Shown here: in pieces, positions 7,636 to 10,821 of the stretch
Position numbering within the stretch: the stretch's first letter is position 1
Layout: every line of letters starts with the position of its first letter
DNA from: Escherichia coli
GTDB taxonomy: Bacteria; Pseudomonadota; Gammaproteobacteria; Enterobacterales; Enterobacteriaceae
Length of the DNA stretch: 64,000 nt
NCBI RefSeq assembly: GCF_030384885.1
Contig: NZ_CP128613.1
Reading direction: 5' to 3' (one strand)
The notes under the pieces: model-generated
The model's input: the letters and a program-made list of their open reading frames with translations, nothing else
Told to the model about the DNA's origin: nothing
The model's database searches: none
Translations under genes and position numbers: made by a program

Positions 7636-10600
7636 ATGAAAAGAATGTTAATCAACGCAACTCAGCAGGAAGAGTTGCGCGTTGCCCTTGTAGATGGGCA
7701 GCGTCTGTATGACCTGGATATCGAAAGTCCAGGGCACGAACAGAAAAAGGCAAACATCTACAAAGGTAAAATCACCCGCATTGAACCGAGTCTGGAAGCT
7801 GCTTTTGTTGATTACGGCGCTGAACGTCACGGTTTCCTCCCACTTAAAGAAATTGCCCGCGAATATTTCCCTGCTAACTACAGTGCTCATGGCCGTCCCA
7901 ACATTAAAGATGTGTTGCGTGAAGGTCAGGAAGTTATTGTTCAGATTGATAAAGAAGAGCGCGGTAACAAAGGCGCAGCACTGACCACCTTTATCAGCCT
8001 GGCAGGTAGCTATCTGGTTCTGATGCCGAACAACCCGCGCGCGGGTGGTATTTCTCGCCGTATCGAAGGCGACGACCGTACCGAATTAAAAGAAGCACTG
8101 GCAAGCCTTGAACTGCCGGAAGGCATGGGGCTTATCGTGCGCACCGCTGGCGTCGGCAAATCTGCTGAGGCGCTGCAATGGGATTTAAGCTTCCGTCTGA
8201 AACACTGGGAAGCTATTAAAAAAGCCGCTGAAAGCCGCCCTGCCCCGTTCCTGATCCATCAGGAGAGCAACGTAATCGTTCGCGCATTCCGCGATTACTT
8301 ACGTCAGGACATCGGCGAAATCCTTATCGATAACCCGAAAGTGCTCGAACTGGCGCGTCAGCATATCGCTGCATTAGGTCGCCCGGATTTCAGCAGCAAA
8401 ATCAAGCTGTACACTGGTGAAATTCCACTGTTCAGCCACTACCAGATCGAGTCGCAGATCGAGTCCGCCTTCCAGCGTGAAGTCCGTCTGCCGTCTGGTG
8501 GTTCTATTGTTATCGACAGCACTGAAGCGTTAACTGCCATCGATATCAACTCCGCACGCGCAACCCGCGGCGGCGATATCGAAGAAACCGCGTTTAACAC
8601 CAACCTCGAAGCTGCCGATGAGATTGCTCGTCAGCTGCGCCTGCGTGACCTCGGCGGCCTGATTGTTATCGACTTCATTGACATGACGCCAGTCCGCCAC
8701 CAGCGTGCGGTAGAAAACCGTCTGCGTGAAGCGGTGCGTCAGGACCGTGCGCGTATTCAAATCAGCCATATTTCTCGCTTTGGCCTGCTGGAAATGTCCC
8801 GTCAGCGCCTGAGCCCATCATTGGGTGAATCCAGCCATCACGTCTGCCCGCGCTGCTCCGGTACCGGCACCGTGCGTGACAACGAATCCCTGTCGCTCTC
8901 TATTCTGCGTCTGATTGAAGAAGAAGCGCTGAAAGAGAACACTCAGGAAGTGCATGCCATTGTTCCTGTACCAATCGCTTCTTACCTGCTGAACGAAAAA
9001 CGCTCTGCGGTAAATGCCATTGAAACTCGTCAGGACGGCGTGCGCTGTGTGATTGTGCCAAACGATCAGATGGAAACCCCGCACTACCATGTGCTGCGCG
9101 TACGCAAAGGGGAAGAAACCCCAACCTTAAGCTACATGCTGCCGAAGCTGCATGAAGAAGCGATGGCGCTGCCGTCTGAAGAAGAGTTCGCTGAACGTAA
9201 GCGTCCGGAACAACCTGCGCTGGCAACGTTTGCCATGCCGGATGTGCCGCCAGCGCCAACGCCAGCTGAACCTGCCGCGCCTGTCGCAGCCCCAGCACCT
9301 AAAGCTGCATCAACAACACCAGCAGCTCCTGCACAACCAGGGCTGTTAAGCCGCTTCTTCGGCGCACTGAAAGCGCTGTTCAGCGGTGGTGAAGAAACCA
9401 AACCGACCGAGCAACCGGCACCGAAAACTGAAACGAAACCGGAACGTCAACAGGACCGCCGTAAGCCACGTCAGAACAACCGTCGTGACCGAAATGAACG
9501 CCGCGACACACGTAGCGAACGTAATGAAGGCAGCGATAATCGCGAAGAAAACCGCCGTAATCGTCGCCAGGCACAGCAGCAGATTGCCGAGACGCGTGAG
9601 AGCCGTCAGCAGGCTGAGGTAACGGAAAAAGCGCGTACCACCGACGAGCAGCAAGCACCGCGTCGTGAACGTAGCCGCCGCCGTAATGATGATAAACGTC
9701 AAGCGCAACAAGAAGCGAAAGCGCTGAATGTTGAAGAGCAATCTGTTCAGGAAACCGAACAGGAAGAACGTGTACGTCCGGTTCAGCCGCGTCGTAAACA
9801 GCGCCAGCTGAATCAGAAAGTGCGTTACGAGCAAAGCGTAGCCGAAGAAACGGTAGCCGCACCAGTGGTTGAAGAAACTGCCGCTGCCGAAACCATCGTT
9901 CAGGAAGTGCCTGCTCCGCGTACAGAACTGGCGAAAGTCCCGCTGCCAGTCGTAGCGCAAACTGCGCCGGAACAGCAGGAAGAGAACAATGCTGATAACC
10001 GTGATAACGGTGGCATGCCGCGTCGCTCTCGCCGCTCGCCTCGTCACCTGCGCGTAAGTGGTCAGCGTCGTCGTCGCTATCGTGACGAGCGTTACCCGAC
10101 CCAGTCGCCAATGCCGTTAACCGTAGCGTGCGCGTCTCCGGAACTGGCCTCTGGCAAAGTCTGGATCCGCTATCCGATTGTACGTCCGCAAGATGTACAG
10201 GTTGAAGAGCAGCGCGAACAGGAAGAAGTACAAGTGCAACCGATGGTGACTGAGGTCCCTGTCGCCGCCGCTGTCGAACCGGTTGTTAGCGCACCGATTG
10301 TTGAAGAAGTGGCTGAAGTCGTAGAAGCCCCCGTTCAGGTTACCGAACCGCAACCGGAAGTGGTTGAAACGACGCATCCTGAAGTGATTGCCGCCGCGGC
10401 AACTGAACAGCCGCAGGTGATTACCGAGTCTGATGTTGCCGTAGCCCAGGAAGTTGCAGAACACGCAGAACCGGTGGTTGAACCGCAGGAAGAGACGGCT
10501 GATATTGAAGAAGTTGCCGAAACTGCTGAGGTTGTGGTTGCTGAGCCTGAAGTTGTTGCTCAACCTGCCGCGCCAGTCGTCGCTGAAGTCGCAGCAGAAG

Positions 10601-10821
10601 TTGAAACGGTAGCTGCGGTTGAACCTGAGGTCACCGTTGAGCATAACCACGCTACCGCGCCAATGACGCGCGCTCCGGCACCGGAATATGTTCCGGAGGC
10701 ACCGCGTCACAGTGACTGGCAGCGCCCTGCTTTTACCTTCGAAGGTAAAGGTGCCGCAGGTGGTCATACGGCAACGCATCATGCATCTGCCGCTCCTGCG
10801 CGTCCGCAACCTGTTGAGTAA
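7636..10821 (+). CDS. rne: ribonuclease E
   Basis: 1061-aa [33 protein letters not shown]...; S1 and catalytic domains then an Arg/Pro/Glu-rich low-complexity C-terminal half. Confidence 0.97.

Follow-up and report, generated by a model that had tools for sequence, protein, structure and literature searches.

Long antisense open reading frames opposite the RNase E scaffold of Escherichia coli are very probably non-coding shadows of its amino-acid composition

Results

The rne locus

The window, which is the whole 64-kb stretch of E. coli DNA analysed here, carries rne with rluC adjoining it upstream and with flgL and then flgK, both on the minus strand, downstream. The features of the locus are:

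6104-7063, minus strand: rluC, adjoining rne upstream
7275-7611, plus strand: rne 5′ UTR autoregulatory element (Rfam rne5, RF00040), full length, 260 bits against a gathering score of 180
7636-10821, plus strand: rne, ribonuclease E, 1061 aa, the real gene by open reading frame, Pfam and RefSeq annotation
9223-10818, plus strand: low-complexity C-terminal degradosome scaffold half, RNase E aa 530-1061, by composition and entropy
10840-10863, plus strand: rne intrinsic terminator-like hairpin, a 10-bp stem followed by a T run
10935-10974, minus strand: flgL terminator-like hairpin, a 12-bp stem with nine G-C pairs and a T7 run

Both gene order and protein architecture mark this as an Enterobacteriaceae rne. 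The order rluC, rne, flgL is the same in annotated E. coli records, and the rne5 element lies in the 5′ UTR; the N-terminal half of the protein consists of an S1 domain (PF00575, aa 36-117), an RNase E/G domain (RNase_E_G, PF10150, aa 121-391, E = 1e-98) and a small thioredoxin-like domain (RNase_E_G_Thio, PF20833, aa 403-488), while the C-terminal half is a low-complexity scaffold with enolase- and PNPase-binding microdomains. Peptide matches in the PDB place these microdomains at aa 813-850 (enolase complexes 5ohg and 3h8a) and at aa 1004-1061 (PNPase complexes, including 3gcm at aa 1021-1061), and Pfam recognises PNPase_C (PF12111) at aa 1022-1058. The gene has the length (1061 aa), neighbours, Pfam domains and rne5 element of E. 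coli RNase E, and its scaffold shares the enolase-site and PNPase-site peptide matches.

A match to rne was present in 5,425 of 5,426 complete E. coli genomes, and among the 40 matches listed of those 5,425, 'rne: ribonuclease E' was the sole annotated feature under the match in all 40 (RefSeq/PGAP). The window's allele differs from that of strain 2013C-4282 by 1 nt and is otherwise 100% identical to it; mainstream E. coli differ from it by about 4% in DNA at the locus, with 95-96% identity in the C-terminal half of the protein. The allele is one of a rare E. coli lineage, which implies no functional difference.

Five amino acids account for 62% of the C-terminal half (A 14.7, E 14.3, V 11.7, P 10.9 and R 10.2%), which is rich in Gln as well, and entropy per 60-aa window falls there to 2.6-3.3 bits, against 3.6-4.0 bits in the N-terminal half. 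An earlier note on this DNA had called the second half of rne low-complexity and rich in Arg, Pro, Glu, Ala and Val, a description that these figures bear out; it had placed the start of the region at nt 8900, however, and we find that it begins near nt 9223 (aa 530). The same note's word 'repetitive' was too strong, compositional bias rather than tandem repetition being what we see: TRF returned just one 20-nt array, with a score of 33, and a direct-repeat search found only short degenerate motifs of the GAAGTnGCnGAA type.

Three long ORFs in two open antisense frames

Opposite the scaffold half lie three minus-strand open reading frames of 233, 243 and 230 aa, exactly as the earlier note had reported:

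9346-10047, minus strand: 233-aa antisense ORF, codon-aligned frame, very probably not a gene; its stop is the reverse complement of Leu571 TTA
9380-10111, minus strand: 243-aa antisense ORF, second antisense frame, very probably not a gene; inside a 301-codon open stretch, 9383-10285
10117-10809, minus strand: 230-aa antisense ORF, codon-aligned frame, very probably not a gene; its stop is the reverse complement of Leu828 TTA
10117-10119, plus strand: Leu828 TTA codon, the single codon-aligned antisense stop between 9349 and 10824

The codon-aligned antisense frame comprises stop-free stretches of 256 and 235 codons, parted by the stop at 10117-10119. Together with the 301-codon stretch of the second antisense frame, these uphold the claim that frames opposite rne are open for hundreds of codons, although the claim had extended to the other two sense-strand frames, where no run in the C-terminal half exceeds 83 codons (+1) or 40 codons (+2). 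In the third antisense frame the longest run within the C-terminal half is 74 codons, or 104 when a run begun in the N-terminal half is counted.

The three ORFs are locally exceptional within the 64-kb window: no other embedded ORF in it reaches 200 aa, the next largest being 198 aa.

Scarcity of leucine and serine opens the codon-aligned frame

A stop in the codon-aligned antisense frame arises only opposite a sense TTA, CTA or TCA codon. These codons occur three times in the 532 codons of the C-terminal half, at Ser559, Leu571 and Leu828, and eight times in the 529 codons of the N-terminal half. Leu571 TTA sits inside the membrane-targeting helix; the membrane-targeting sequence (aa 565-582, 18 residues) is a further feature shared with E. 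coli RNase E. Leu and Ser together make up 5.6% of the C-terminal half (30 codons) against 16.8% of the N-terminal half (89 codons), and the share of them written as TTA, CTA or TCA is about 10% in both (3/30 and 8/89). The scaffold half differs from the catalytic half in having three times fewer Leu and Ser residues, with avoidance of the three codons equal between them. Amino-acid composition, and not codon choice, is thus the main cause of the open codon-aligned frame, where the earlier note had named codon bias. The first codon position is T in only 5% of codons in the C-terminal half.

When the codons of rne were shuffled, by permutation or synonymously, the expected longest run in this frame averaged 267-278 codons, and the observed 256-codon run was unremarkable (P = 0.51-0.56). 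The lengths of the 233- and 230-aa ORFs are therefore those expected from composition, the C-terminal half being poor in Leu and Ser and holding few TTA, CTA or TCA codons.

The same pattern extends across the order. We compared 80 rne genes, the window's and those of 79 Enterobacterales species, and found a codon-aligned antisense run of at least 200 codons in the C-terminal half of 64 of the 80, at positions that shift from gene to gene; over the whole gene, such runs reach up to 857 codons. Run lengths across the 80 genes match per-gene synonymous shuffles, with P ≤ 0.05 in two genes for the codon-aligned frame and in four for the second antisense frame, where four are expected by chance. 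Antisense stops are, if anything, more numerous than Leu and Ser content combined with N-terminal-half codon usage predicts (390 observed against 219 across the 80 genes). Nothing keeps the antisense frames open across Enterobacterales rne.

Codon usage is gene-like only in the rne frame

Coding potential was scored by codon log-odds, with 30 other ORFs of the window as the training set; these themselves scored 0.26 ± 0.06 bits per codon with a minimum of 0.144. The rne frame scored 0.24-0.46 bits per codon in every 300-nt window; the antisense ORFs, read in their own frames, scored 0.024 (233 aa), -0.037 (243 aa) and -0.216 (230 aa), all under the lowest training gene. Codon usage in none of the three is gene-like in its own frame, and the earlier note's proposed check, that only the rne frame should look coding, came out as it predicted.

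Signals for expression are similarly sparse. The first starts of the three ORFs are TTG or GTG with weak or absent Shine-Dalgarno sequences, and a consensus scan of 8900-11100, a crude method whose outcome is weak evidence either way, found no sigma-70-like promoter on either strand. The flgL terminator-like hairpin (10974-10935 as read on the minus strand) sits just upstream of the 230-aa ORF on the same strand, and would be expected to halt minus-strand transcription ahead of the rne antisense region. The sole gene-like signal is an AGGAG 10 nt ahead of an internal ATG at 10782 in the 230-aa ORF, with a duplex energy of -7.0 kcal/mol.

Scanned against Pfam, the three antisense ORFs gave no match at E ≤ 0.1. 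Searched against 5.8 billion clusters, the 230-aa translation matched just 17 rare proteins without Pfam domains, two of them labelled uncharacterised or hypothetical and the rest unnamed; these proteins are occasional miscalls. The main text and the examined supplements of an E. coli ribosome-profiling antisense screen, whose tables may use other identifiers, do not mention rne, nor does the main text of PMC9927249 name it. The three antisense ORFs are probably neither transcribed nor translated.

Substitutions follow selection on rne

Relative to the K-12-like strain BM28, substitutions at first, second and third rne codon positions number 12/10/57 in the C-terminal half (57 of 79 at third positions) and 2/0/52 in the N-terminal half (52 of 54). 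Changes at rne third positions strike the antisense codons at their first or second positions, so that antisense dN/dS is 1.0-1.7 for the 233-aa ORF and 1.8-4.0 for the 243-aa ORF, against 0.08-0.15 in the rne frame. For both ORFs, dN/dS and the gain of stops fit simulations with selection on rne alone. In-frame stops interrupt the 233-aa ORF in E. coli E69, in E. albertii and in BEC1-S17. Neither in the 14 other Escherichia genomes nor in the 80 Enterobacterales rne genes did antisense ORF integrity go beyond what composition predicts.

The 230-aa ORF

If any of the three antisense ORFs is translated, which we consider very improbable, it is most plausibly the 230-aa one. Lying over the acidic tail of rne, it could in principle be a genuine antisense overlapping gene, either at its full span of 10117-10809 or as a 221-aa version beginning at ATG-10782, where the AGGAG described above would serve it; such a gene, or proto-gene, would be weakly translated, and we give it only a slender chance.

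Of the 12 other genomes examined that are labelled E. coli, 11 keep the ORF intact, the exception being SCPM-O-B-8794, which has a stop, and the frame remains open in E. albertii, although the TTG start is lost there. An open frame is nevertheless expected over this span, since besides Leu828 TTA, where the ORF itself ends, it holds only one Leu and six Ser codons. Nor is the frame protected in the wider comparison: in the last 230 codons of the 80 rne genes we counted 114 antisense stops where 69 were expected, and 26 stop-free genes where 41 were expected.

The ORF has a dN/dS of 0.36-0.90, which lies below a naive sense-only simulation (P ≤ 0.007 in four of five comparisons) and which we had taken as a candidate sign of purifying selection. 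We dropped that candidate after listing the substitutions and repeating the simulation with rne replacements weighted by BLOSUM62, which reproduces the observed values (P = 0.18-0.86). The changes that are synonymous in the antisense ORF consist of V/I, A/T, V/M and E/K replacements at first positions of RNase E codons, along with synonymous rne changes at Gln (CAA/CAG) and Pro (CCG/CCT). As in this frame a change in a sense codon fully fixes the change in the antisense codon, the low ratio reflects the conservative replacements of the acidic tail. None of the three ORFs showed purifying selection of its own over and above that acting on rne. The coding score of -0.22 bits per codon and the lack of a Pfam match likewise weigh against a gene here, and the outcome of the crude promoter scan and the hairpin just upstream may do so too.

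The 243-aa ORF and the second antisense frame

The 243-aa ORF is the one whose length composition does not readily reproduce. Its 301-codon open stretch compares with 160 ± 53 codons expected from synonymous shuffles (P = 0.013) and is the longest of the 80 genes in the second antisense frame. Codon permutation gave P below 0.001, but permuting codon order over the whole C-terminal half mixes Arg-rich with Val/Glu-rich segments and was rejected as a poor null for this ORF; the synonymous shuffle is the fairer one, and conservation settled the question. We examined conservation here because the excess of the 301-codon run was the one result that might have pointed further.

A stop in the second antisense frame requires two adjoining sense codons, the first with TT, CT or TC as its last two letters and the second with A as its first. 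Such pairs are scarce in the Arg/Gln/Glu-rich segment of rne, and the last few stops have probably been lost by chance in the window's lineage. The ORF has in-frame stops in 13 of 14 other Escherichia genomes; only the window and 2013C-4282 keep it whole. All ten mainstream E. coli examined carry a stop at the ORF's own codon 101, and E69 and SCPM-O-B-8794, both E. coli, and E. albertii have stops elsewhere in it.

That the ORF is instead a lineage-specific de novo gene of the window's rare E. coli lineage would explain an open stretch longer than the shuffles predict, and the intact ORF in the window and in 2013C-4282 speaks for it, but we regard this as more improbable still than a gene in the 230-aa frame: a P near 0.01 is weak with five frames tested, four of 80 genes at P ≤ 0.05 in that frame is what chance predicts, the ORF begins with TTG without a Shine-Dalgarno sequence (-2.4 kcal/mol) below 58 upstream codons lacking any start, its coding score is -0.04 bits per codon, its second codon positions coincide with rne third positions, giving the dN/dS of 1.8-4.0, and the crude consensus scan found no promoter-like site. 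The excess length over shuffles turned out to be an artefact of lineage sampling.

Shadow ORFs and overlapping genes

We therefore read the three minus-strand ORFs as non-coding shadow ORFs arising from the composition of the RNase E scaffold, and not as genes, with a probability of roughly 95%. 'Shadow' ORFs are long non-coding ORFs opposite real genes; since sense strands seldom use TTA, CTA and TCA, they arise most often in the codon-aligned antisense frame. The phenomenon has been discussed in PMC3454372 and in papers on overlapping genes. Two of the three window ORFs lie in exactly that frame, with stops that are reverse complements of TTA codons and lengths that shuffles reproduce, and all three share the absence of conservation or coding signal. 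They are unusually long for a genome of 51% G+C because the region that hosts them is so extreme in its amino-acid composition. What we describe is an ordinary, already understood phenomenon in a well-known gene.

Antisense overlapping genes with experimental support differ from these ORFs. In E. coli O157:H7, pop (antisense to ompA), ano, laoB and the oloz genes likewise lie opposite an annotated 'mother gene' as long or embedded ORFs, but they are backed by RNA-seq, ribosome profiling, mapped promoters and the phenotypes of translationally arrested mutants (PMC9927249, PMC7103648).

Coding score, substitution pattern, integrity, dN/dS, Pfam and PGAP annotation all agree with the earlier note's advice that the ORFs should not be annotated as genes, and no independent antisense coding signal, whether of periodicity or of conservation, survived testing. 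No false-positive gene candidate in the window is longer than these three, which should stay unannotated, and the few 'uncharacterised protein' or 'hypothetical protein' database entries from the rne locus are miscalls of this kind. The locus also holds a caution for claims of overlapping genes, in that an antisense dN/dS below 1 (230 aa) and an over-long ORF (243 aa) both proved to be artefacts, the first of genetic-code symmetry together with conservative replacements in RNase E and the second of lineage sampling.

Length variation in rne

The earlier note had also suggested looking for length polymorphism in the repeats between strains. Length polymorphism does occur within E. coli but is rare: in a sample of 40 records spaced evenly through the ranked matches, 38 share one span of 1922 nt. 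A 12-nt segment (window 10575-10586) is absent from strain e1-39, and an in-frame segment of 609 nt (window 9868-10476, aa 745-947), situated between two copies of ACCGGTGGTTGAA, is absent from strain GN4738. Between genera, the length of RNase E ranges from 997 to 1181 aa.

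Codon usage and reading frames of the scaffold half

The codons TTA, CTA and TCA are over-represented in the low-complexity C-terminal half of rne (9223-10818 in the window), where we counted 390 across 80 genes, that of the window and those of 79 other Enterobacterales species, against 219 expected from the codon usage of the N-terminal half; this excess suggests that codon selection is weaker in the disordered half of the gene. The earlier note held that the other sense frames of this half lie open for hundreds of codons, a description that proved too generous for the window, whose +1 sense frame is open for 83 codons at most in the Arg-rich segment, and that better matches many other Enterobacterales (the compared rne loci L018, L019, L022, L045 and others), in which the same frame is open for 120-186 codons at approximately aa 576-760 of RNase E.

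Other overlapping ORFs

Two further overlaps in the window involve the following ORFs:

15788-16384, + strand, 198-aa ORF, nearly all of it lying opposite a 237-aa ORF (15740-16453, - strand) in the flagellar gene region
7187-7555, - strand, 122-aa ORF, overlapping the rne 5' UTR element (Rfam rne5, 7275-7611, + strand)

The antisense pair at 15740-16453 holds the next-longest putative shadow ORF of the window, that is, a long non-coding ORF opposite a real gene; the 122-aa ORF is almost certainly spurious too.

Variation at and beside rne in E. coli

In the urinary isolate E. coli GN4738 (NZ_CM177114.1; locus L085), 609 nt of rne, equivalent to 9868-10476 of the window, are deleted in frame and flanked by two copies of a 13-nt direct repeat, ACCGGTGGTTGAA, leaving an RNase E of 858 aa without aa 745-947, a stretch to which the second Arg-rich segment belongs, as does the enolase-binding site. 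This could be a real, natural truncation of the scaffold, or else an assembly error.

Between rne and flgL, some E. coli carry an inserted two-gene toxin-antitoxin module (TacA-family antitoxin and GNAT acetyltransferase), which is absent from this interval of the window (approximately 10822-11015). Its carriers among the compared loci are:

rne-flgL intergenic region, L084, E. coli e1-39
rne-flgL intergenic region, L088, E. coli BEC1-S17

Lineage of the window

The window was compared with complete E. coli genomes at two segments, 7636-10821 and 40000-42000. It matches E. coli 2013C-4282 at 100% identity, but its identity to almost every other complete genome of the species is no more than 95-99%; depending on the segment, 3 to 19 of 5425 genomes reach at least 99% identity. 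Judged by these identities, the window belongs to a rare, divergent E. coli lineage.
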